Notes: generated from the sequence alone by a model not told the origin. Counted from the first letter of the stretch, positions 1,140-15,110 are shown. The stretch: 20,243 nt of DNA from Candidatus Woesearchaeota archaeon (GCA_016219865.1 JACRKF010000023.1:1-20243); one strand, 5' to 3'. Translations and numbers: made by a program.

Positions 1140-4100
1140 ATGGAAAATGCAGCAACTTCTCAACATAGAAATATGAAGATTACACAAATAAAAAAACGCA
1201 ATGGTGTTATTGTTGCATTTGATGAGAGCAAGATAACTCAAGCAATTTTCAATGCTGCGCAGTCAGTAGGTGGAACTAATCTTGAGATTGCAAAACAGCT
1301 TACAGATAATGTCATAGAATTGCTTAATCTTAAGTCTTTTGAAAATAACACCCCTTCTATTGAAGAAGTCCAAGATACTGTTGAAACAGTTTTAATTAAA
1401 ATGGGACATGCAAAGACAGCTAAAGCATATATTCTTTATAGAAATGAAAAGAAACAGCTCAGAGAAGAGCAGGGTAAGGTTTTCCAAGAATCTCAGCCAA
1501 TAGAAAGCAAAGAGCGTGTAATTGCTGAAGAAGATGATCCTTATGAATTAATGTTTGCGCATAAAACAAAGATCCTCAAATTAATCTCATCTGAAGTTCT
1601 TGGTAAATATAAAGAATTATTGTTTATGTTAAGAACAATGCAAAAACAAGGAATTTTGCCTGTGCATGAAAACTACCTTAGTGATAATCTTTTAGCTAAA
1701 GATATTTATTTGCGAAAGTATTATGTAAAAGATCTTGATGGAAAATCAATTGAAACAAAACCAGAAGATGTATTTGCAAGAATTGCTGCATTCTTGGCTA
1801 CTGTTGAAGATTCTGAAGAAAACAGAAAAGAATATGCAATCAAATTTTATAATCATCTTTATCATGGTCATTATTTGCCAGGTGGAAGAGTAATCACAGG
1901 CGCAGGAGATTTATATCGATTAAAAACATTGGCAAATTGTTTTGTATCTATGATAGATGGAGATAATATAGAATCAATCTATAAAACCGCATACGAATGC
2001 GCAAGAACATATTCTTATGGCGGCGGTATTGGTGTAGACATCTCATCATTGCGTCCAAGAAATTCTATTGTTCATAATGCATCAGATTTTTCAACAGGGA
2101 GTGTTTCTTTTATGGAGTTATTCTCATTGACAACTGGATTGATTGGACAATCAGGAAGAAGAGGAGCACTGATGTTAACATTAGATGTAAAGCATCCTGA
2201 TGTTCTTGATTTTATCAATATAAAACAAATACCTAATTGGGTAACTCGTCAAATAGTAGATCAATGCAATTGGTCTGGACAGTTTAATAAATCACAATTG
2301 CAAGAAGTAGAAAAACAAGTCAGAGAAAATACTCAAGTTAGATTTGCTAATATTAGTTTAAAAATGAGTGATGAATTCATGCAGGCTGTTGATGAACAGT
2401 TTCATAATAATGTAAATACTATTTGTGTTTACAAAAGGCTTCATAATGATACTCCATTAAAAACAAAACAAAGTGAGATTCATTATTCTATCGGAATACC
2501 TTCGAAGGATATAAGTAATTATCAATTATTATTTGCATCAGCAGATATGACTGAGGTAAATGGTTTTTTACAAAATTATGGTGTTTCACTTAATGAAGAA
2601 GAATTAAAAAACCAAACTAAAAGAAACATTTTTGGTGATTATATATTAAATATTAATCAAACAGAAGCTCTTGCTTTACATTATGCTGGAGATTTCATGC
2701 TTTATTTTAATTCTGATCAAACAGGAGAGATTAAACGGTTAATAAAAGCAAAAGAATCTTGGAATCAATTTGTTGCAAGCAATTATAAGACTGCAGAACC
2801 AGGATTAATGTTCTGGTCAACAATGACAAAATATTCTCCAACAAATTATATTGGAAGACCAATCATCTCTACAAATCCATGCGGTGAAATCCCATTGCAA
2901 GATGGCGGAGCTTGTAACTTAGGAAGTTTGAACCTTTCTCGTTTTGTAAACAATGGATACACAGAGAAAGCTGCAATTGACTGGGATTTATTGAAAATAA
3001 CAATTCATGATTTTATCAGAATGTTAGATAATACAATCACTTGGAATGAACAACTTAATCCTCTGGAAAAACAGCGAGTTGCTGCTAATGAAACAAGAAG
3101 ACTTGGATTAGGTGTTATGGGTATAGCTGATATGTTTAATCAGTTAGGCATAGGTTATGATAGCGATGAAGGAATTGCATTAATAAAAATGATTATGGAA
3201 TTTATAGCAAATGAAGCTTACAGAGCATCAGCTTTATTAGCTAAAGAAAAATCACCTGCATCATTATGGAATTATGAGCAATATTCACAGAATCCATTCT
3301 ATAAAGAAATTATTTCTGATGATGTAAAACAATTAGTAAAAATAAATGGATTAAGAAACATAGCATTATTATCAATCGCGCCAACTGGGACAATATCAAA
3401 TGCAGTGCTTGGTTTTGTTGATCCACAAAATAAACATTATGTAGGTGTAAGTTCTGGTGTTGAACCTATATTTGCTTTATATTACAGAAGAAGATCAGAA
3501 ACATTAAATAAAGAAGAAAGCAGTAAATTTTATACAGTATATCATCCAACTGTGCAAGCATATGTTGATATGATGAAACTTCAAGATCATGTTCAGAATC
3601 TTGAAGATCTTGATGAAATGCGCACAATTTTGCCAGCGTTCTTTTTTAGAACATCTCATTTTATTGACCCAATGAAACGTGTTCAGATACAAGGGGTTTG
3701 TCAAAAATATATAGATCATAGTATTTCTTCAACAGTAAATTTGCCAGAGAGTATTGCACCAGAAACAGTATCGCAAATCTATTTTGAAGCATGGAAAAAA
3801 GGTTTAAAAGGAATTACTATTTACAGAGATGGAAGCAGATATCCTATATTAAGCGTTGCAACACAACAATCAGAATTCCAGAAAATAAAAGCAAAAACAT
3901 ACAAGATTATTTTAGAAAATGCTGAAATTACAGTAAAAGGTGATGAGGTATTTACTGCAGATGATGGCAGGATTACAACAGCTTTTCATGCAATGGAGAA
4001 CAATGGCAATAATGCTAGTCTGCAAATATTAGAGCTAGATTCAGTTACAATGAATCCAATTACTGTAACAATGCATACAACAGAAGTTTCAGAAAAAGAA

Positions 4101-4157
4101 GGCGTATGCAAGATTGAACTAAAAGATGGCAAGGTTATCAAAACTTGTGAAGAGTAA
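1140..4157 (+). CDS. nrdJ: Adenosylcobalamin-dependent (class II) ribonucleotide reductase with N-terminal ATP-cone; long form
   Basis: 1005 aa. The ATP-cone is KITQIKKRNGVIVAFDESKI...YILYRNEKK. Catalytic blocks present: LANC267FV, SYGGGIG, GRRGALM, KHPD, STNPC581GE583, GAC592NLGSLNL, APTGTIS and ITIYRDGSR. The C-terminal tail carries two Cys (C990, C1003). Confidence 0.95.
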   Translation: MENAATSQHRNMKITQIKKRNGVIVAFDESKITQAIFNAAQSVGGTNLEIAKQLTDNVIELLNLKSFENNTPSIEEVQDTVETVLIKMGHAKTAKAYILYRNEKKQLREEQGKVFQESQPIESKERVIAEEDDPYELMFAHKTKILKLISSEVLGKYKELLFMLRTMQKQGILPVHENYLSDNLLAKDIYLRKYYVKDLDGKSIETKPEDVFARIAAFLATVEDSEENRKEYAIKFYNHLYHGHYLPGGRVITGAGDLYRLKTLANCFVSMIDGDNIESIYKTAYECARTYSYGGGIGVDISSLRPRNSIVHNASDFSTGSVSFMELFSLTTGLIGQSGRRGALMLTLDVKHPDVLDFINIKQIPNWVTRQIVDQCNWSGQFNKSQLQEVEKQVRENTQVRFANISLKMSDEFMQAVDEQFHNNVNTICVYKRLHNDTPLKTKQSEIHYSIGIPSKDISNYQLLFASADMTEVNGFLQNYGVSLNEEELKNQTKRNIFGDYILNINQTEALALHYAGDFMLYFNSDQTGEIKRLIKAKESWNQFVASNYKTAEPGLMFWSTMTKYSPTNYIGRPIISTNPCGEIPLQDGGACNLGSLNLSRFVNNGYTEKAAIDWDLLKITIHDFIRMLDNTITWNEQLNPLEKQRVAANETRRLGLGVMGIADMFNQLGIGYDSDEGIALIKMIMEFIANEAYRASALLAKEKSPASLWNYEQYSQNPFYKEIISDDVKQLVKINGLRNIALLSIAPTGTISNAVLGFVDPQNKHYVGVSSGVEPIFALYYRRRSETLNKEESSKFYTVYHPTVQAYVDMMKLQDHVQNLEDLDEMRTILPAFFFRTSHFIDPMKRVQIQGVCQKYIDHSISSTVNLPESIAPETVSQIYFEAWKKGLKGITIYRDGSRYPILSVATQQSEFQKIKAKTYKIILENAEITVKGDEVFTADDGRITTAFHAMENNGNNASLQILELDSVTMNPITVTMHTTEVSEKEGVCKIELKDGKVIKTCEE

Positions 4158-4191
4158 GGAGAATTTTGCAAAGTTATCTATGCAATCTTTG
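4158..4191. repeat. Degenerate copy (copy 2) of the GAGAATTTTGCA palindromic repeat
   Basis: GGAGAATTTTGCAAAG begins 1 nt after the nrdJ stop (TAA 4155-4157). The right arm has decayed to TGCAATCTTTG. Confidence 0.45.
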
Positions 4192-4208
4192 ATTAAAGGA
4201 ATATAACA

Positions 4209-4619
4209 ATGGAACAAATATATAATCTTCAAATGCGTGGAAAAATATTATTTTATATTGCTGCATTTATATGTTTCATTAGTTTAATAGGGATTCCTGT
4301 TGGAATTCTATTTATTATTATGGCTTATCGGGCAAAGATTGTTATTTTAGACGATGCTGTTGTTTATACTATGTTGTTTACAAAAACTATTTGTTATAAA
4401 GATATTACAAAAATCATGTTGGCAAAACCAGTTAGTCCGCGGCTGTATATGGGAAATGCTGCGCCAGGTGTATTTATTAATGTGGTTACTGTAGTTCCAT
4501 TGATTATTGAGTCTAAAGATAAAAAAATAAAGTTCTCAGCTAATTTCTTTGACAATTCTGAAGAAGTTGTTTCAATCATCTTAAAGAAAACAAAATTAAA
4601 ACTTGAAACCCGTACGTAA
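4209..4619 (+). CDS. Small membrane protein, function unknown
   Basis: 136 aa. The N-terminal hydrophobic hairpin is ILFYIAAFICFISLIGIPVGILFIIMAY, followed by a soluble domain. AAGGA precedes the ATG. I recognise no family. Confidence 0.55.
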   Translation: MEQIYNLQMRGKILFYIAAFICFISLIGIPVGILFIIMAYRAKIVILDDAVVYTMLFTKTICYKDITKIMLAKPVSPRLYMGNAAPGVFINVVTVVPLIIESKDKKIKFSANFFDNSEEVVSIILKKTKLKLETRT

Positions 4620-4727
4620 TAAGTCTGTAGTTATTACATACAAGAATAGTAAAAATTTATAAAGAGTTGAATAAATTAATTATTAATTATCAGAATAATT
4701 TTAAATTGTTGAAAAAGAGGTGTATTT

Positions 4728-5981
4728 ATGAGAAAGATTACATTATTGATGATTTTATTAATTCTATCGAGTTTTTTGTTTGTTATTTCTTGCAGTAAAG
4801 AAGATTCATCTGAAACTAAAGTTGATAAAGAAGATTCAATTGATGATGACATTGCAGAAATTGAAGATGATATTGCAGAAGATGAAAGTGCAGCAGAAAA
4901 CAATATTGTGGAAACAAAATCACCAACTAATGCAAAAGATTCTTCAGCGGAAATTGAATTTATTGATGCAAATTACAAAGGTCCATTTCCAGCTCCAGAA
5001 GGAATTGTTTTAGTAGGGCTTTATGGAAAAGATATTTACAAGTCGCCTACAGGAAATGGAATGTATCGCTTTAATCTTCAAACAGCATGGCAAAAACATA
5101 TTTCTTGCTTAGATGATACTAGAACAATAATGGGCAGCAAAGGTAAGAATTGGGAGATTGGATTTGCTAATGGATATAATGTTGGAAGAAATGATCGTGA
5201 AGCAATTCCTCAATTAGCATATAATGATTATCCTCAAGGTGTAGATGCTGGAAATAAATTATACGATGAAGGATACAAACTAGGTTATGAAAGAGGATAT
5301 GATCTATCATCTTATTGGGGAGCGCAATATAGTTGTCCAGGACATGATGTAGATTTATCAGATTATGATTCAGATGGCTGGATGAAACTTTCTGAGATTG
5401 AAGATATGCCTGGAATTAAAACAATTTATATTCCGCCAACTCCTTATTCAGGCATGGGATATAGTTCACAAACAGCTTTAGGTTCAGATAGCAAATCGTT
5501 TTTGTTTGATACAATTGATAAAGAACGCATGGTTGAAAAAACTAAATTAAATAATGGAAAGCAAGCTCTTAATATTGATCGTATTGACTTTCTAGATACA
5601 GAGCAAGATGCAACTGAACAAAAGATGACTGAACTGCAGATAGCAGAAGAGATATATAAGATGTCAGCTAATCAAATAGTAAAGTATGGTCCATTATGTA
5701 AACTTAGTGATCCTAAATATGAGACTAAGACTTATGGTAAGAATACTTTTGTTCAACTCACATTTATGCAGATGTGTACTGCTGGAAGCGCTTCAGGTGA
5801 ACCTAATTGGAACATTCATGCTTATGCTTTTATGAAAAGCAGTGATAATAAAAGAATCTTAACATTCTTTTTCCATGTGCCTTTTAGTCTAAAGAAAAAA
5901 GGTGTTGATGAACTTGATTCAACAAAAGCACCTGGTGTTGACTTTATTTCGCAATTCCTTGAAAAAGTGGATTATCAATAG
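4728..5981 (+). CDS. Secreted or surface lipoprotein with an acidic linker, function unknown
   Basis: 417 aa. The signal peptide ends in a lipobox-like VISC. An acidic repeat linker follows (DDDIAEIEDDIAEDE). GAGGTG Shine-Dalgarno at 4717-4722 and TATA TTTATAAA at 4656-4663. Confidence 0.7.
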   Translation: MRKITLLMILLILSSFLFVISCSKEDSSETKVDKEDSIDDDIAEIEDDIAEDESAAENNIVETKSPTNAKDSSAEIEFIDANYKGPFPAPEGIVLVGLYGKDIYKSPTGNGMYRFNLQTAWQKHISCLDDTRTIMGSKGKNWEIGFANGYNVGRNDREAIPQLAYNDYPQGVDAGNKLYDEGYKLGYERGYDLSSYWGAQYSCPGHDVDLSDYDSDGWMKLSEIEDMPGIKTIYIPPTPYSGMGYSSQTALGSDSKSFLFDTIDKERMVEKTKLNNGKQALNIDRIDFLDTEQDATEQKMTELQIAEEIYKMSANQIVKYGPLCKLSDPKYETKTYGKNTFVQLTFMQMCTAGSASGEPNWNIHAYAFMKSSDNKRILTFFFHVPFSLKKKGVDELDSTKAPGVDFISQFLEKVDYQ

Positions 5982-6054
5982 AGAAAATACTAATTTGAAT
6001 CAAAACATTTTTAATCTAATAATAATTCCTCTTTTCTAAAAAGGGAAATTTATT

Positions 6055-6669
6055 ATGGTAACAAAACTGCGCGCGCCAATTATTGTTGAAGGTGACAGTG
6101 ATAAAACTAAACTTGGTCTAATTCATATCTATACTGGCGATGGCAAGGGTAAAACAACTGCTTCTTTAGGGCTGGCATTGCGCGCTTTAGGTTGTGGATA
6201 CAGAGTATATATGATACAATTTCTTAAATCAGGCAATACTGGCGAGTTGCATGCAATGGAGAAATTCACAGGTAATTTTGTAATTGAACAATTTGGCAGT
6301 GATGCAATCAAGGAAAGACAGCAAAAACTGCAAACATTCACTGAGAATATTGATACATTTCGGTTTAACGCAGATGAAATTGAGCGAGAAGCTTGCAGAT
6401 TAGGATTAGAAAAAGCTTTTTCTATTATTCAATCAAAAGAATATGAGATGGTTATTCTAGATGAAATTAATTGCGTATTAGACAAAGGTTTGATAACACT
6501 TGAAGAAGTTAAAAAATTATTTGATGCTCATGGTACAACAGAATTAGTATTAACTGGAAGAGATGTGCCAAAGCAATTGTTTGAGCATGCAGATTATATT
6601 TCTGTCATCTCTAGAGAAAAACATCCATGGCAAAAAGGAATAAAAGCAAGAAGAGGAGTTGAGTATTAG
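6055..6669 (+). CDS. cobO: Cob(I)alamin/cob(I)yrinic acid a,c-diamide adenosyltransferase (CobA/CobO/BtuR family)
   Basis: 204 aa. IHIYTGDGKGKTTASLGLALRALGCGYRVYMIQFLK, VILDEINCVL, LVLTGR and the C-terminal GVEY match the BtuR/CobO pattern end to end. Confidence 0.9.
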   Translation: MVTKLRAPIIVEGDSDKTKLGLIHIYTGDGKGKTTASLGLALRALGCGYRVYMIQFLKSGNTGELHAMEKFTGNFVIEQFGSDAIKERQQKLQTFTENIDTFRFNADEIEREACRLGLEKAFSIIQSKEYEMVILDEINCVLDKGLITLEEVKKLFDAHGTTELVLTGRDVPKQLFEHADYISVISREKHPWQKGIKARRGVEY

Positions 6670-6670
6670 T

Positions 6671-8704
6671 ATGGCATTAAAAGTACTCAAGCGGGATGGA
6701 AGACAAGTTGATTTTGATCAGCAGAAGATAGTGGAAGCTATTTTTGCAGCTGCGCATTCTGTTGGCGGCAATGATAAGGCATTATCAGAGCAACTGGCAG
6801 AAAAAGTAAAAACATCAGTTTATGAGAGATTCACAACAACAAATCCAACTGTTGAGGATATCCAAGATACAATTGAACGTATTCTCCTTGAAGAGCATCA
6901 TCTAAATACTGCAAAAGCATTTATTCTTTATAGAGAAAAAAAAGCAAAATTACGGAATTTAAAACATGCAATCCTTGGAAAAATGGTTGATAAAAGAATC
7001 TCATTGAATGCATTGAAGATATTAAAAGAACGTTATCTAAGAAAAGATGATAATGGTGTAATTATTGAAACTCCAGAGATGTTATTTAGAAGAGTTGCAA
7101 AAACAATTGCGCAAGCTGATAAATTATACGAAGTCGAACGCGCAGATTATAAAAAAATAGAAGAGCTATTTTTCCAATCAATGATGAGTTTTAATTTTGT
7201 TCCTAGCACGCCAATCTTAATGAATGCAGGCACAAAACTGCAGAACTTACATGCATCATATGTTCTTCCAGTAGAAGATAATTTAGATTGCATTTACAAT
7301 TCATTAAAAACATCAGCGATGATACATCAATCAGCTGGAGGCACTGGATTCTCATTCTCAAGATTGCGTCCAAAAGATGATTATATTAGCACAACGCAAG
7401 GATTTTCTTCCGGACCTATCTCATTTTTGCAGCTCTATGACAAATCTACTGAAATAATGAAAAAAGGTGGAAAAAGAAGAGGAGCAAACATGGCAATATT
7501 GCGTGTTGATCATCCTGATATTCTTGAATTTATCACTTCAAAAGAAGATCCAAAATCACTTGCAAATTTTAATATTTCTGTAGGCATCACAAAAGATTTT
7601 ATGGATGCAGTTGAAAAAGATAAACTCTATAATCTTATTAATCCAAGAACAAAAGAAGTTGTTAGAAAACTGCCAGCAAGAGAAGTATTTGATCTTCTTG
7701 CAACAATGGCATGGCGCAATGGAGAGCCTGGTGTTATTTTTATAGATAAGATCAATGATAAGAATGTTTTGCCAGAACTTGGTGAAATTGAAGCAACATC
7801 TCCATGCGCAGAAGCATTGCTTTATCCTTATGAAGCTATTAGTTTAGCAGCAATAAATCTTGCAAATATGGTTAAGGATAAGAAAGTTGATTATGATAAA
7901 CTTCGAGAAACATGCGCGCTTGTTGTGCATTTCTTAGATAACTGCATTGATCTAACAAAATATCCAACAAAAGAGACTGAAGAAGCAACAATAGCAAATA
8001 GAAAGATTGGTGTTGGTATAATGGGATTTGCTGATATGTTATTTCAATTGCAAATTCCTTATGACAGTGATTCTGGATTAGAAATTGCAGAAACTATAAT
8101 GAAATTTATTAATGAAGAAACAAAAAAAGCATCAGCTGATCTTGCTAAAGAAAGAGGAGCTTTTCCAAACTTTAAGAAAAGCATTTACGCTGAAAAGTAT
8201 GCAGAAAAAGGAATCAAACTGCGAAATGCAACAACAACTGCAATTGCGCCAACAGGAGCTACAAGCATGATTGCAGATGTTTCTTCAGGAATTGAGCCTA
8301 ATTTTGCAATTTCTTTTATCAAACGTGTTTTAGATGGAGAAGATTTTCTTTATGTCAACAAATATTTTGAACAAATTGCGCAAGAACGTGAGTTTTACAA
8401 CGAAGCATTAATGAAGTCAATTGCGAATAAAGTCAGTTTAAAAGAATTCCTTGAGATTCCAAGAGATATAAGAAAAGTGTTTGTTACATCTCATGAAATA
8501 TCTCCTGATTATCATGTCAAAATGCAGGCAATATTCCAGAAGCATTGTGATAATGGTGTTTCTAAAAGCGTCAATTTAAAATATACTTCTCATAAAGAAG
8601 ATGTTACAGATATCTATAAACTTGCATATAAACTTGGCTGCAAAGGAATTACAGTTTACAGACATAATTCAAGAGCAGAACAAGTGCTGACGCTGGAAAG
8701 GTAG
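6671..8704 (+). CDS. Class II RNR-like paralogue with ATP-cone (automated annotation would call it adenosylcobalamin-dependent ribonucleotide reductase); the active site is atypical
   Basis: 677 aa counted from ATG 6671. AGAGGAG lies upstream, and the ATG begins 2 nt after the cobO stop. The ORF track starts it at TTG 6659. It aligns collinearly with short T. maritima-type NrdJ (RYLRKDDNG, SAGGTGFSFSRLRP, GGKRRGANM, DHPD, GEPGVIF, SPC379AE381, IAPTGATS, ITVYRH). It has S196 and I390 where the redox cysteines belong, and S377 where the Asn belongs. Confidence 0.9.
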   Translation: MALKVLKRDGRQVDFDQQKIVEAIFAAAHSVGGNDKALSEQLAEKVKTSVYERFTTTNPTVEDIQDTIERILLEEHHLNTAKAFILYREKKAKLRNLKHAILGKMVDKRISLNALKILKERYLRKDDNGVIIETPEMLFRRVAKTIAQADKLYEVERADYKKIEELFFQSMMSFNFVPSTPILMNAGTKLQNLHASYVLPVEDNLDCIYNSLKTSAMIHQSAGGTGFSFSRLRPKDDYISTTQGFSSGPISFLQLYDKSTEIMKKGGKRRGANMAILRVDHPDILEFITSKEDPKSLANFNISVGITKDFMDAVEKDKLYNLINPRTKEVVRKLPAREVFDLLATMAWRNGEPGVIFIDKINDKNVLPELGEIEATSPCAEALLYPYEAISLAAINLANMVKDKKVDYDKLRETCALVVHFLDNCIDLTKYPTKETEEATIANRKIGVGIMGFADMLFQLQIPYDSDSGLEIAETIMKFINEETKKASADLAKERGAFPNFKKSIYAEKYAEKGIKLRNATTTAIAPTGATSMIADVSSGIEPNFAISFIKRVLDGEDFLYVNKYFEQIAQEREFYNEALMKSIANKVSLKEFLEIPRDIRKVFVTSHEISPDYHVKMQAIFQKHCDNGVSKSVNLKYTSHKEDVTDIYKLAYKLGCKGITVYRHNSRAEQVLTLER

Positions 8705-8727
8705 GCTTGTTGATGAATGTTTTGAAG

Positions 8728-8746
8728 TGTCCGAAAAAATCGGACA
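8728..8746 (+). terminator. Hairpin TGTCCGA-AAAAA-TCGGACA downstream of the second RNR gene
   Basis: A perfect 7-bp stem lies 24 nt after the stop codon. Its function as a terminator is inferred. Confidence 0.35.
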
Positions 8747-8891
8747 ACTGAAATTAATGAAATTATTCTGCAATATAATTTTATTGAAAAGCATACAACT
8801 ATTGAATCAACTACCTTATGCATGATGTATAAGATTAGAAATATGGTTCAATAGATTGTTAGTATTGATTAGATTAAATATTAAAATTTAA

Positions 8892-8992: not shown

Positions 8993-9283
8993 TTACTTTT
9001 CAGTGAATTTTATGTCATTAAATAAATCATCTAAATATATAATCTTATCCGCCGTAATCTTAATTTCTTTTGATAGACTATTTCTAAAAGAAGCAACCCA
9101 TATTTTTATTCCTGCATCTTTTGCGCATTCAATAGCATCTTTAAAATCTTCATCACCACTAACTATAATACATATATTACATGTTTTTTGCAGTGCATGG
9201 CGTAATATATCTGTTGCTAATGAAATATCTACTCCTTTTTGGATTTGTCTTTCATGAGTTGTAGAGCAATTAGGACATACCAT
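8993..9283 (-). CDS. NYN/LabA-like (DUF88) domain protein, C-terminal two-thirds; probably part of a frameshifted gene that starts at 9411
   Basis: 96 aa. It has CPNC followed by QKGVDISLATDIL and IIVSGDEDFKDAIE, which are hallmark NYN motifs. The N-terminal IDG strand is missing from this ORF but is recoverable upstream in another frame. Confidence 0.7.
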   Translation of the reverse strand: MVCPNCSTTHERQIQKGVDISLATDILRHALQKTCNICIIVSGDEDFKDAIECAKDAGIKIWVASFRNSLSKEIKITADKIIYLDDLFNDIKFTEK

Positions 9284-9431
9284 TTTTCTATTTTTTAGTA
9301 TTTTTGTTCTGATTTGTATTCCTTTTTCCTGTAATGCTTGTATAAAATTCTTCTTTTTTACAGGTATCTGCTCAGGAACACCACTATTAAAACTACTGAT
9401 TTCTCATCCATTTTTAGCAAAATATACCATC

Positions 9432-9440
9432 TTTATATAA
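9432..9440 (-). promoter_or_regulatory. TATA box (minus strand, TTATATAAA) about 20 nt upstream of ATG 9411
   Basis: Its position matches the leaderless spacing seen for other genes in this window. This supports 9411 as the true NYN gene start. Confidence 0.45.
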
Positions 9441-9462
9441 AGTTTTCTAAGAAAAAAATACC

Positions 9463-9470
9463 TTTATATA
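9463..9470 (+). promoter_or_regulatory. TATA box TTTATATA 24 nt upstream of the aRF1 ATG at 9494 (leaderless)
   Basis: Read directly. The same spacing is seen at 14541, 15186, 15862 and 19492. Confidence 0.55.
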
Positions 9471-9493
9471 CCATTACTTTTTCTATTAACGAT

Positions 9494-10600
9494 ATGTCAA
9501 TTACTGCAATGCAGCGTTTTAAGCTGCGAAAGATAATCAAGGAGTTAGAAACATATAGAGGAAGGCATACTGAATTAGTTACTGTGTACATTCCCAAAGA
9601 TTATGATCTCAACAAGATAATTAATCATCTTTCGCAAGAAGTAGGAACTGCTTCTAATATAAAATCCACAGCAACAAGAAAGAATGTAACTGATGCATTA
9701 GAAAAAATGATTCAGCATCTGCGTCTTTACAAAAGAACAGCTGAAAATGGATTAATGGTTTTCTCAGGAAATGTTTCAGAAAGAGAAGGACAAAGCGATG
9801 TTAAAGTTTGGAGCATTGAACCTCCTGTGCCATTAAATCAGCGATTATATCGATGTGATAAAGAATTTGTATTAGATGTGCTTCGTGATATGTGCGAGGA
9901 AAAAGAGGTTTATGCTTTTGTTGTGCTTGACAAACGAGATGCTCATCTCGCTTTGTTGAGAGGAAAAACAATTGTGCCTGTTGCAAAAACACATTCAGAA
10001 GTTCCAGGTAAAATGCGAGCTGGTGGACAATCATCAGTAAGATTTGAAAGAAACAGGGAACTTGCGCTCAAAGACCATCTCAAAAAAGTAGGAGATTATA
10101 TGAAAGATAATTTCTTGCCAATGATTGGGCAGATAAAAGGCATTATTGTTGGCGGTCCTGGACAAACAAAGTATGAGTTCGTTGAAGGAGATTATATCAC
10201 TGATCAAGTTCGCAGAAAGGTTATAGCAATTAAAGATATAGGTTATACTGAAGAAGTAGGTCTGCAAGAATTGCTTGATAGAAGTGATGATGTTTTAGCG
10301 CAAGAAGAAGTTGCAGACGAAAAAAGGATAATGAACAAATTCTTTTTATTGCTTTCAACAAAACCAAATATGGTATGTTATGGTGAGGCAGATGCAGCAA
10401 AATTTCTAGACATGGGTGTTGTTGATACATTGCTTTTATCTGAATCTTTGCCAGATGAAACAATCACAAAATTTGAAGAAAAAGCGCAGCAGTTTAATTC
10501 AATTGTTAAGATAATATCAACAGAAACAAGAGAAGGAGTGCAACTGCGAGATATTGGAAAAGCTGCTGCTATCTTGCGGTATGAAGTGCATCAGGAGTAA
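9494..10600 (+). CDS. prf1: Peptide chain release factor aRF1
   Basis: 368 aa from MSITAMQRFKLRK. It has TASNIKS, YRCDKEF and RAGGQSS. The 52 codons upstream (ORF-track start 9338) are low-complexity, overlap the divergent promoter region, and are rejected. Confidence 0.95.
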   Translation: MSITAMQRFKLRKIIKELETYRGRHTELVTVYIPKDYDLNKIINHLSQEVGTASNIKSTATRKNVTDALEKMIQHLRLYKRTAENGLMVFSGNVSEREGQSDVKVWSIEPPVPLNQRLYRCDKEFVLDVLRDMCEEKEVYAFVVLDKRDAHLALLRGKTIVPVAKTHSEVPGKMRAGGQSSVRFERNRELALKDHLKKVGDYMKDNFLPMIGQIKGIIVGGPGQTKYEFVEGDYITDQVRRKVIAIKDIGYTEEVGLQELLDRSDDVLAQEEVADEKRIMNKFFLLLSTKPNMVCYGEADAAKFLDMGVVDTLLLSESLPDETITKFEEKAQQFNSIVKIISTETREGVQLRDIGKAAAILRYEVHQE

Positions 10601-11677: not shown

Positions 11678-12562
11678 TCAATTCCTCACTTCAAACAATT
11701 CTCCAATCTTTCTATATAATGTTTGATTGAATACTAATCTTTGATGTCCAACTCCTTTAATACCATAAGCAGATTCAATTTCAATATTTCTTGCTCCCTC
11801 TAAAATAGAACTGCTATAAGGAATTATGATTAAATCAGTTTTACTATAAAGATTAATTATCTTTGCTAATGTCTCATCTGTGTCTTTTTTTGCTAGTTCA
11901 AGTAGAAAAGCGCTGCCATAACGTAATTCTTCTACACATTTTCCACCCATGCCAAAGAGTTGGATAACTTTCATTGCAAATTCATGTTCAACCATTCTTG
12001 TTCTATGTTCAATATTTACAGCTGCAGTTGCTAATAATGTGCCAAAATGCGGCGCGCCAAGTGTAACTACATTATCAATTGATGATTTATCTTCTTGCAA
12101 TACTTTTCGTGCTTGTACTCCACCCATACTATATCCAAGTAATGAAACTTGTTGGTAGCCTGAGTTTCTTTTAATATAATCAATATCTTCTGCTAATCTT
12201 TCTGCATTTAATGAAATTCCATCATGCACTGGTAAATCAACAACAAATGTTTTACCTGTATGTCCATTGCTTCCAAAATATCTCTCAACACGTTCTAAGC
12301 ATTCTCTTTTCTGCATAAACCCTGGAAGAATTAACAATGGATTTGTTTCATCTTCTGTTTTTCTATCAACTATACCATCATAAAGTTTATGACGTAGATT
12401 TTCAGGAGTGCCAATTCTATTACCTGAAACCATTCTTTTTCCAAAACCATAAACATTATGCGTTAAACTTGGTAGTTCCTTTGCAATATGTGGAAGTGCT
12501 AATGTAATCTGAAGCAAAGTTTGTTTTAAGATTACGTATTCTTCTTGTAATAGAGTTTGCAT
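11678..12562 (-). CDS. Alpha/beta hydrolase, PGAP1-like / class 2 lipase-esterase family
   Basis: 294 aa. The nucleophile elbow is LLGYSMGGVQAR (GxSxG). VTLGAPHFGT follows downstream. On the minus strand a TATA lies 22 nt upstream of the ATG. Confidence 0.8.
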   Translation of the reverse strand: MQTLLQEEYVILKQTLLQITLALPHIAKELPSLTHNVYGFGKRMVSGNRIGTPENLRHKLYDGIVDRKTEDETNPLLILPGFMQKRECLERVERYFGSNGHTGKTFVVDLPVHDGISLNAERLAEDIDYIKRNSGYQQVSLLGYSMGGVQARKVLQEDKSSIDNVVTLGAPHFGTLLATAAVNIEHRTRMVEHEFAMKVIQLFGMGGKCVEELRYGSAFLLELAKKDTDETLAKIINLYSKTDLIIIPYSSSILEGARNIEIESAYGIKGVGHQRLVFNQTLYRKIGELFEVRN

Positions 12563-12603
12563 AAATAAATTACTAGAATAACTATATATAAAAAGTTAAT
12601 GAA

Positions 12604-15020: not shown

Positions 15021-15110
15021 TGAGCAGCACGGGATTCGAACCCGCAACCTTCCGGTTTCTTCGAAAAAACTTAAGAGCCGGATGCTCTAACCAGGTTGAG
15101 CTAGCTGCCC
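15021..15110 (-). tRNA. tRNA-Lys(CUU) with a 15-nt intron at the canonical 37/38 position
   Basis: Minus strand reading: GGGCAGC TA GCTC AACCTGGTTA GAGC A TCCGG CTCTTA[AGTTTTTTCGAAGAA]A CCGGA AGGTT GCGGG TTCGAAT CCCGT GCTGCTC A. All stems pair, with G-U at positions 2-71 and 49-65. The intron maps to 15057-15071. CCA is not encoded. Confidence 0.9.

Follow-up and report, generated by a model that had tools for sequence, protein, structure and literature searches.

Loss of redox residues under purifying selection in a class II ribonucleotide reductase paralogue of Woesearchaeota

Three active-site positions of the Escherichia coli class Ia ribonucleotide reductase (RNR) subunit R1 have been substituted in the laboratory, and the resulting C225S, C462S and N437X mutants are reportedly inactive or self-destructive. 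Here we describe a gene, nrdJ2 (6671-8704, + strand), whose 677-residue product differs from canonical class II RNRs (NrdJ) at the same three positions. It lies in a 20,243-nucleotide stretch of DNA from a Candidatus Woesearchaeota archaeon (GCA_016219865.1, JACRKF010000023.1:1-20243), which as a whole is referred to below as the window, together with a gene for a canonical class II enzyme, NrdJ1. In contrast to the laboratory mutants, NrdJ2 is natural and conserved, and it carries additional co-varying changes. Residues N437, C439, E441 and C462 are treated as essential, and sequences without them have been filtered out of reference sets, 286 of 29,401 RNRdb representatives being removed for lacking essential residues (10.1101/2021.01.20.427478). 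The class II finger loop reads NPCxE in 3,175 of 3,347 sequences (PMC9669993); in NrdJ2 it reads TSPCAE. Among class II tails that have no zinc finger, 26% also have no cysteine, which was noted without explanation (PMC9669993).

NrdJ from Thermotoga maritima (PDB 1xje, 3o0o) resembles NrdJ2 in fold and domain order at 33-35% identity, and the two have in common the radical cysteine, the glutamate, specificity loops 1 and 2, the APTG motif and strand βJ. They differ in that NrdJ2 has serine in place of Asn320 and of Cys134, isoleucine in place of Cys333, and no C-terminal cysteine pair or zinc finger. In the split NrdJa/NrdJb enzymes (PMC9669993) the catalytic chain likewise has no C-terminal cysteine, but NrdJa keeps the asparagine and both active-site cysteines. 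Similarly, the formate-dependent class III enzyme NrdD does without a cysteine pair and thioredoxin tail for its reducing equivalents; unlike NrdJ2, it uses a glycyl-radical cofactor, requires a βA cysteine and a finger-loop methionine, and is without the glutamate that NrdJ2 keeps (PMC9669993).

Paralogues that have lost their own chemistry are known to be kept beside an active enzyme in other systems, and these offer the closest functional parallels to NrdJ2. Yeast Rnr4 is reportedly a catalytically dead small-subunit paralogue, and an Rnr2/Rnr4 heterodimer is said to have been demonstrated. Rnr4 and the apicomplexan R2e2 (PMC3824934) are radical-generating β subunits of eukaryotic class I RNRs, whereas NrdJ2 is an archaeal class II protein of the α type. 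Like NrdJ2, they are RNR paralogues that lack residues for chemistry, are kept by selection and co-occur with an active paralogue. The prozyme of trypanosome S-adenosylmethionine decarboxylase (AdoMetDC) also belongs to a pair of active and inactive paralogues in which the inactive member is conserved; its fold and pathway are different, and its activating heterodimer has been demonstrated structurally (PMC5201418), whereas for NrdJ2 a heterodimer is proposed. In the literature that we searched, no description of NrdJ2 and its relatives or of their synteny was found.

Residue losses and purifying selection in NrdJ2

The nrdJ2 open reading frame (ORF) contains no internal stops. Pfam searches identified an ATP-cone (PF03477, residues 4-92, E = 6.1e-21; 6680-6946, + strand), the RNR all-alpha domain (PF00317, residues 110-190, E = 1.8e-25) and the RNR barrel (PF02867, residues 196-663, E = 2.4e-126). 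NrdJ2 scored 677 bits against TIGR02504 (NrdJ_Z), over the cut-off of 400, and 846 against the narrower equivalog NF006417, under its cut-off of 961. Because the latter match covers only model positions 9-575 of 759, the C-terminal part of the model is missing in NrdJ2. An AlphaFold2 model generated from an alignment of NrdJ2 and its closest relatives (pLDDT 80, pTM 0.84) was compared with the PDB, a check proposed in the initial annotation of this DNA. The best Foldseek matches were all T. maritima NrdJ chains (TM-score 0.75-0.83, probability 1.00), and the predicted fold is thus that of T. maritima NrdJ.

Residues were mapped by phmmer alignment of NrdJ2 to T. maritima NrdJ (1xje); all positions given are on the + strand. 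On strand βA, T. maritima LSAC134FVVPV aligned with LHAS196YVLPV, which puts Ser196 (TCA, 7256-7258) at the position of the first reducing cysteine (C134; C225 in E. coli). The finger loop STN320PC322GE324 aligned with ATS377PC379AE381 (T376-S377-P378-C379-A380-E381, 7796-7813). Here the asparagine is replaced by Ser377 (TCT, 7799-7801), while the radical cysteine C379 (TGC, 7805-7807) and E381 (GAA, 7811-7813) are kept. On strand βF, YEAC333NLGS aligned with YEAI390SLAA, and Ile390 (ATT, 7838-7840) occupies the position of the second reducing cysteine (C333; C462 in E. coli). The last part of the gene (8639-8704) encodes the βJ strand, C657-K-G-I-T-V-Y-R, and only 13 more residues before the stop codon. 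The protein ends ...VYRHNSRAEQVLTLER, with no cysteine after C657, no cysteine pair and no zinc finger. This alignment bears out the initial annotation, which had claimed that both reducing cysteines, the asparagine and the tail are lost while the radical cysteine and the glutamate are retained. The codons and coordinates that it gave for S196 and I390 were also right, and TCA and ATT are each more than one substitution away from TGY.

The suggestion that C207 could serve as a substitute thiol did not hold, as only 2 of 26 members of the NrdJ2 clade (defined below) have a cysteine there. C415, C425 and C626 are also not conserved in the clade, and no other clade-specific conserved cysteine is available to stand in for the βA/βF pair. 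The allosteric apparatus, in contrast to the redox residues, is present by sequence, including specificity loops 1 and 2 and an ATP-cone that keeps the KRDGR...F...KI motif. Residues K264-M274 (KKGGKRRGANM, 7460-7492), which we take to be loop 2 from their alignment with T. maritima K202-L211 and from the T. maritima structures, show the conservation seen in canonical NrdJ. Thr182 of the SPT motif was considered as the known phosphate-binding residue and rejected, since the class I alignment favours the preceding Ser/Thr, kept as T180.

By fold and profile, then, NrdJ2 belongs to the NrdJ family while failing three of its defining catalytic features: the βA/βF redox cysteine pair, the class II N-P-C-x-E motif (serine for asparagine, with cysteine and glutamate present) and the C-terminal re-reducing cysteine pair or zinc-finger tail. 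Because standard thiol-dependent two-electron ribonucleotide reduction needs the cysteine pair, the tail and the asparagine, NrdJ2 can no longer carry it out.

A gene in which three to four residues regarded as essential are missing could be a decaying pseudogene, or its substitutions could be sequencing or assembly errors, and it is routine for RNR curation pipelines to drop such sequences as non-functional (10.1101/2021.01.20.427478). We regard this explanation as effectively refuted. Writing the residues at the βA, Asn, radical Cys, Glu and βF positions in that order, NrdJ2 reads S/S/C/E/I, and an orthologue 92% identical to it (P0001) with the same pattern was present in ENA, NCBI (GCA_018303075.1) and JGI datasets. 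A second orthologue (P0002), 81% identical, reads S/S/C/E/C. The pattern is thus not unique to this assembly, and a metagenome scan with the NrdJ2 protein returned only these two orthologue populations. Between the window and the 92% relative, dN/dS (Nei-Gojobori) was 0.058 for nrdJ2, 0.047 for nrdJ1 and 0.076 for cobO, the adenosyltransferase gene upstream of nrdJ2. The same method gave 0.089 for nrdJ2 against the 81% relative, and two other pairs gave 0.083 and 0.076. Amino-acid divergence between genome pairs was also equal for the two paralogues (NrdJ2 versus NrdJ1, 56-57% versus 56-58% and 80% versus 79%). Finally, of the 162 positions with at least 99% conservation in canonical archaeal NrdJ, NrdJ2 has kept 142.

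The residue pattern recurs in three independent datasets, dN/dS is 0.058 and divergence is equal for the two paralogues; NrdJ2 is therefore neither an assembly artefact nor a pseudogene. The intact 677-codon ORF, the near-invariant positions kept and the confidently predicted fold argue in the same direction, and orthologues and synteny are conserved. Both the claim that the substitutions are not base-call errors and the claim that the gene is not decaying, made from the window alone, are therefore upheld. NrdJ2 is selectively maintained, and selection keeps the protein even after each cysteine loss.

Graded losses in the NrdJ2 clade and in other lineages

Among the best 120 database clusters, 98 read C/N/C/E/C. 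The same set holds a group of tail-less proteins of 672-690 residues, all of which have serine in place of the asparagine. The NrdJ2 clade as used here comprises 26 members, including the window protein and two clusters added by profile search. Sixteen of these read CSCEC, five TSCEC, two SSCEA, two SSCEI and one SSCEC. Thus, the βA position is cysteine in 16, serine in 5 and threonine in 5 members, and the βF position is cysteine in 22, isoleucine in 2 and alanine in 2. The order of change suggested by these patterns is that I390 is young, being found only in the window gene and its 92% relative, that S196 is older, and that S377 and the loss of the tail, both clade-wide, are older still.

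Neighbour-joining gave 100/100 bootstrap support for a Woesearchaeota 'short NrdJ' clade of 29 sequences. Two Asn→Ser proteins (P0006 and P0007) grouped at 100/100 with fully canonical, CxxC-tailed sequences (P0003-5), and monophyly of all Asn→Ser sequences was rejected (0/100). The grouping of P0006 and P0007 with canonical relatives indicates that the Asn→Ser change and the loss of the tail cysteines arose at least twice. Distances to the outgroup were 0.67-0.74 for variant lineages versus 0.56-0.59 for their canonical sisters, a modest acceleration.

Canonical archaeal NrdJ has 283 positions with a conservation of 90% or more, and at 247 of them the clade majority agrees. Changes at the other 36 cluster in βA, the finger loop and βF, affecting 12 of 31 positions there compared to 24 of 252 elsewhere (Fisher p = 7.7e-5). 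Within the finger-loop/βF stretch, positions that are at least 90% conserved number 8 of 27 in the clade versus 22 of 27 in canonical NrdJ, and co-varying changes occur nearby (P→A, G→A, Q→V or A, N→P or S). The clade matches the canonical consensus in the ATP-cone, loop 1, loop 2 (KQGGKRRGANM), the APTG motif and βJ (CKGITVYR, invariant within the clade). Across lineages, the βA residue is C, S or T, the βF residue C, I, A, V or G, and the asparagine is replaced by S, D or I. These varied, lineage-specific combinations of losses and the low conservation of the finger-loop/βF stretch look like relaxed catalytic constraint, and not like a new, fixed catalytic constellation.

Other archaeal lineages, mostly of the DPANN group, also contain second NrdJ copies that have degenerated independently and are tail-less. 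In one family the finger loop reads TDPCGD, with Asn→Asp and Glu→Asp changes, S, I or C at one α-face position and A, S or G at the other, and its members stand beside canonical NrdJs (L010, L011, L111, L162, P0205). The TDPCGD copy usually lies just downstream of the canonical gene (at about 7.9-10.1 kb in L010 and L011, 1561-3612 in L111), and the L010 and L011 copies retain a C-terminal CxxC. A TNQCGE family (L015, L019, L031, L039) has cysteine or isoleucine at the βF position. Single cases are P0167, which reads S/D/C/E/T and is followed by cobO, and L043, which reads C/S/C/E/V and also has cobO.

Most informative among these cases is another archaeon (GCA_041599235.1, locus L090), where positions 2690-8759 form a tight operon of nrdR, a NrdJ-like gene, a canonical nrdJ and a gene for a PduO-type adenosyltransferase. 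The NrdJ-like protein (682 residues) has a TIPTGE finger loop, in which both the asparagine and the radical cysteine are lost, and its loop 2 and APTG motif are gone, while the ATP-cone is kept. The canonical NrdJ of this operon (994 residues) has a zinc-finger tail and no ATP-cone. Two features of this operon are unusual: its NrdR is of the bacterial type although the genome is archaeal, and only the dead copy contributes an ATP-cone. The operon shows that a non-catalytic NrdJ paralogue can be retained beside an active one. Additionally, the chains of two proteins (P0140, 1600 residues; P0141, 1351 residues) each hold a pair of canonical NrdJ catalytic domains, both complete and arranged in tandem. 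The halves are 44-50% identical, there is no ATP-cone, and one C-terminal zinc finger is the only tail. Two different NrdJ domains are thus able to work together with one tail, and these fusions may be covalent pseudo-heterodimers. By analogy, they offer a weak Rosetta-stone hint of a complex between NrdJ1 and NrdJ2.

Genomic context of nrdJ2

The window is AT-rich (G+C ~32%) and archaeal, encoding aRF1 at 9338-10600, and its proteins have their closest relatives in Candidatus Woesearchaeota, which belongs to the DPANN group. The organism is a tiny archaeal symbiont; DPANN archaea have very small genomes and rely on scavenged nucleotides and B12. Upstream of nrdJ2 on the + strand are genes for a 2-oxoacid:ferredoxin oxidoreductase β subunit (43-969) and NrdJ1 (1140-4157). 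NrdJ1 is a canonical long class II RNR of 1005 residues with an ATP-cone and, as had been annotated, C267, N579, C581, E583 and C592 and the C-terminal C990...C1003. Two + strand ORFs that follow (4209-4619 and 4728-5981) had no match in Pfam, NCBIfam or PHROG. The first encodes 136 residues with a hydrophobic N-terminal segment, and the second 417 residues that begin with a lipoprotein-like signal (…LFVISC) and continue with an acidic stretch. Because both are missing in the 92%-identical relative, where cobO directly follows the NrdJ1 gene, they represent a recent insertion into the nrdJ1-cobO-nrdJ2 cluster.

The cobO gene (6055-6669, + strand) encodes a CobO/CobA-type ATP:cob(I)alamin adenosyltransferase of 204 residues (PF02572, E = 3.7e-53), which scored 150.8 bits against TIGR00708, under the cut-off of 167.75. 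The gene ends with TAG (6667-6669), and 1 nt separates this stop from the nrdJ2 ATG at 6671. A Shine-Dalgarno-like GAGGAG (6653-6658, + strand), 12 nt upstream of that ATG and within the end of cobO, suggests that the two genes may be co-transcribed and translationally coupled. No partner gene of the NrdJb kind was found 3' of nrdJ2 among the downstream ORFs, which are a 96-residue NYN-domain fragment on the - strand and an 89-residue ORF without a Pfam match. A split NrdJa/NrdJb arrangement was rejected because there is no separate downstream gene for a Cys-rich C-terminal part. The NYN ORF (8993-9283, - strand) matches only the C-terminal half of its profile (positions 72-145 of 145). Loci L001/L002 have a 182-residue NYN gene at the same place downstream of nrdJ2, and the window ORF looks like a truncated copy or gene remnant. 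Further downstream, an Rfam tRNA match (15021-15110, - strand; 56.6 bits) spreads 71 model positions over 90 nt and may be an archaeal tRNA with an intron, while ARAGORN reported no tRNA in the whole window.

A canonical, tail-bearing NrdJ gene is adjacent, lying within a few kb, in 8 of 9 clade contexts examined. The order NrdJ1, cobO, NrdJ2 is seen without interruption on the 697-kb contig of P0027 and in L006, with a small reverse gene before NrdJ2 in L001/L002, and with the two inserted ORFs before cobO in the window. In L007 the enzyme upstream of cobO and NrdJ2 is a zinc-finger NrdJ. In L008 an AAA ATPase gene on the reverse strand separates cobO from NrdJ2, which is followed by a dCTP deaminase gene. 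The order in L099 is NrdJ1, NrdJ2, cobO, and in L005 cobO lies directly downstream of NrdJ2 on the other strand, and an NrdJ1 that carries an intein is found 2.4 kb further. L009, from a Woesearchaeota genome, has the order NrdJ1, cobO, NrdJ2 with an NrdJ2 that is still canonical (P0005), flanked by two cobO paralogues (6276-6929 and 9598-10191). The exception is the 81% orthologue (L003/L004).

The adjacent NrdJ1 is of two unrelated types, one with a C-x12-C tail and ~33% identity to NrdJ2, the other with a zinc-finger tail and ~52% identity. Type A, which comprises the window NrdJ1 and its orthologues, carries the motif C-x12-C-x-E at its extreme C-terminus (VCKIELKDGKVIKTCEE), conserved across Woesearchaeota in place of the usual zinc finger, and has an insertion of ~250 residues relative to standard NrdJ. 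LAGLIDADG inteins are frequent in canonical NrdJ1 (L005, 14400-18524; L008, 3153-7400; L009, 2689-6219), and the finger-loop motif of these three was not found as one uninterrupted stretch; none of the 26 clade proteins has an intein. The patterns '-NCEC' and 'CNCDV' obtained for intein-containing homologues were disregarded as hmmalign artefacts.

Beyond these loci, a scan of GTDB species genomes with the clade profile gave, among the matches listed, mostly ordinary NrdJ at 46-55% identity and no close clade members, but it did bring up further degenerate copies from DPANN archaea. Six of 80 NrdJ loci from GTDB genomes have cobO nearby, at least three of the six being clearly DPANN, and one of them, from a 'Nanobdellati archaeon' metagenome-assembled genome (L013), has a canonical NrdJ copy. 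Linkage to cobO thus appears to be a general trait of DPANN nrdJ and not particular to nrdJ2, and because canonical DPANN genes share it, it is no specific evidence that NrdJ2 uses adenosylcobalamin (AdoCbl). Along with the decisive, clade-wide Asn→Ser change and tail loss and the variable loss of the two cysteines, this goes beyond what the initial annotation had described. Apart from NrdJ1 and cobO, neighbouring genes differ between the loci examined, and none that is conserved there would be able to process an unusual product.

Candidate functions of NrdJ2

NrdJ2 probably does something other than its canonical neighbour. We tentatively favour, at somewhat less than even weight, a reading in which NrdJ2 is a non-reducing, nucleotide-binding α' subunit of the nrdJ1-cobO-nrdJ2 module that would act as an allosteric or structural partner of NrdJ1. 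NrdJ2 resembles pseudoenzyme partners in that the parental catalytic residues are lost, the gene is under purifying selection and an active paralogue co-occurs. This reading is favoured because a canonical NrdJ is almost always adjacent, because the residue losses are graded and lineage-specific with relaxed conservation in the catalytic stretch, because the fully dead copy of L090 has been kept in an RNR operon, and because no conserved nearby gene could handle an unusual product. NrdJ2 would pair with the tail-bearing, catalytic NrdJ1, for example as a heterodimer, in the manner of dead paralogues that support an active enzyme, and might regulate it. Its history could then have begun with a second copy that became tail-less while working with a tail-bearing partner. 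The asparagine would have been lost next and the now-dispensable cysteine pair last, with the final α-face cysteine disappearing only in the window lineage.

Several observations weigh against an α' partner. T376, S377, C379 and E381 are each invariant in 26 of 26 clade members, and the radical cysteine and the glutamate would have no obvious use in a purely structural partner. Ser377 is encoded by TCN in some lineages and by AGY in others, and its convergence, with two or more origins, counts in the same direction. In loop 2, the APTG phosphate motif and the βJ pocket, conservation matches that of active enzymes, which would fit a protein that still binds substrate. In L008, the end of a CSCEC-type nrdJ2 and the dCTP deaminase gene (12028-12585) share 4 nt; at least this clade member is thereby tied to deoxyribonucleoside triphosphate (dNTP) metabolism, and the overlap would fit a dNTP-making protein. 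Neither NrdJ1 nor cobO was found within 7.6 kb upstream or 10 kb downstream of the 81% orthologue, and the existence of two unrelated NrdJ1 types speaks against a tightly co-evolved heterodimer.

The invariant C379, E381 and S377, the convergent serine, the intact substrate-side loops and the varying NrdJ1 type keep alive the readings in which the clade consists of active AdoCbl thiyl-radical enzymes. Such enzymes would work without the cysteine pair, either with an external reductant or in a redox-neutral reaction, and Ser377 would be a selected replacement for an asparagine that is universal elsewhere; we consider this possible, though rather unlikely. A redox-neutral reaction on a nucleotide, taken alone, is unlikely. 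The most obvious candidate is a ribonucleotide 2'-dehydratase, in which C379 would take the 3'-hydrogen, E381 would aid loss of the 2'-OH and the hydrogen would be returned from the top face. The product would be a 3'-keto-2'-deoxynucleotide, as in the first half-reaction of RNR and similar to diol-dehydratase chemistry, and in class I the Cys225/Cys462 mutants and 2'-halo substrates reportedly yield it. Breakdown of a 3'-keto-2'-deoxynucleotide gives base, pyrophosphate and an alkylating furanone, and the furanone inactivates class I mutants. The invariant finger-loop residues and the codon-switched, convergent serine fit this chemistry, as does a distribution of clade substitutions that is concentrated in βA, the finger loop and βF and leaves every nucleotide-binding motif intact. 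Loss of the tail would be expected where no re-reduction is needed, and the gene is linked to an adenosyltransferase. However, the product is unstable and no conserved neighbour would consume it, the finger-loop/βF stretch is poorly conserved, related degenerate copies have lost the glutamate or the radical cysteine, and the cobO linkage extends to canonical DPANN NrdJ. We find it quite improbable that NrdJ2 is instead a genuine RNR served by a small external donor (formate, sulfide or a thiol of low molecular weight) with direct access to the α-face pocket, which would make the cysteine pair and tail dispensable. The whole regulatory apparatus (ATP-cone, loops 1 and 2, phosphate motif) is kept, the evolutionary rate equals that of canonical RNR, the L008 member is translationally coupled to dcd, and both cysteines are still present in 16 of the 26 clade members. 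However, the finger-loop asparagine is required in class I, in agreement with mutant data, and NrdJ2 has no α-face thiol to deliver the 2'-hydrogen. Additionally, a canonical RNR in the same cluster makes it unnecessary to assume a second reductase. Class III RNR does offer a precedent for a non-thiol reductant, but its formate route needs a βA cysteine and a finger-loop methionine (PMC9669993). A class III-type formate mechanism is therefore unlikely for NrdJ2, which has Ser196 on βA, Ile390 on βF and no methionine in its finger loop (EATSPCAE).

A role in cobalamin handling is very doubtful. NrdJ2 might accept, store or chaperone AdoCbl on its way from CobO to NrdJ1, or sequester damaged cob(II)alamin, which could matter in organisms that scavenge scarce B12. 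Its gene starts 1 nt after the cobO stop, and such copies are linked to CobO (window, L001, L005-L009, L031, L039, L043, L091, L099) or to the unrelated PduO-type enzyme (L090). Furthermore, CKGITVYR is invariant in the clade, and the space between βJ and the finger-loop cysteine is the class II adenosyl pocket (PMC9531940). Against this, the single-copy canonical nrdJ of L013 is also followed by cobO, so that the linkage may reflect NrdJ as a B12 user, and conservation of the ATP-cone and the specificity loops would be left unexplained. The initial annotation had offered an RNR with an external reductant analogous to formate, a different AdoCbl radical reaction on a nucleotide, and a regulatory or pseudoenzyme partner of NrdJ1. 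The partner gains most from the evidence presented here, and the formate analogy is weakened.

Class I and II RNRs are regarded as having an invariant chemical core, made up of the N-x-C-x-E motif and the βA/βF cysteine pair. Yet the sequences described here that lack these elements belong to conserved clades of DPANN archaea with shared synteny, and strong purifying selection acts on them. A ready panel for asking which residues the RNR scaffold needs is provided by the natural series CNCEC → CSCEC → TSCEC/SSCEC → SSCEI/SSCEA. Should NrdJ2 prove catalytically active, it would draw the reducing equivalents for ribonucleotide reduction from a new source or carry out an AdoCbl radical reaction of a new kind. 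If it is a dead α' partner, it would be the first prokaryotic α-type RNR pseudo-subunit that we have found described, and would reveal a new way of regulating class II RNR.

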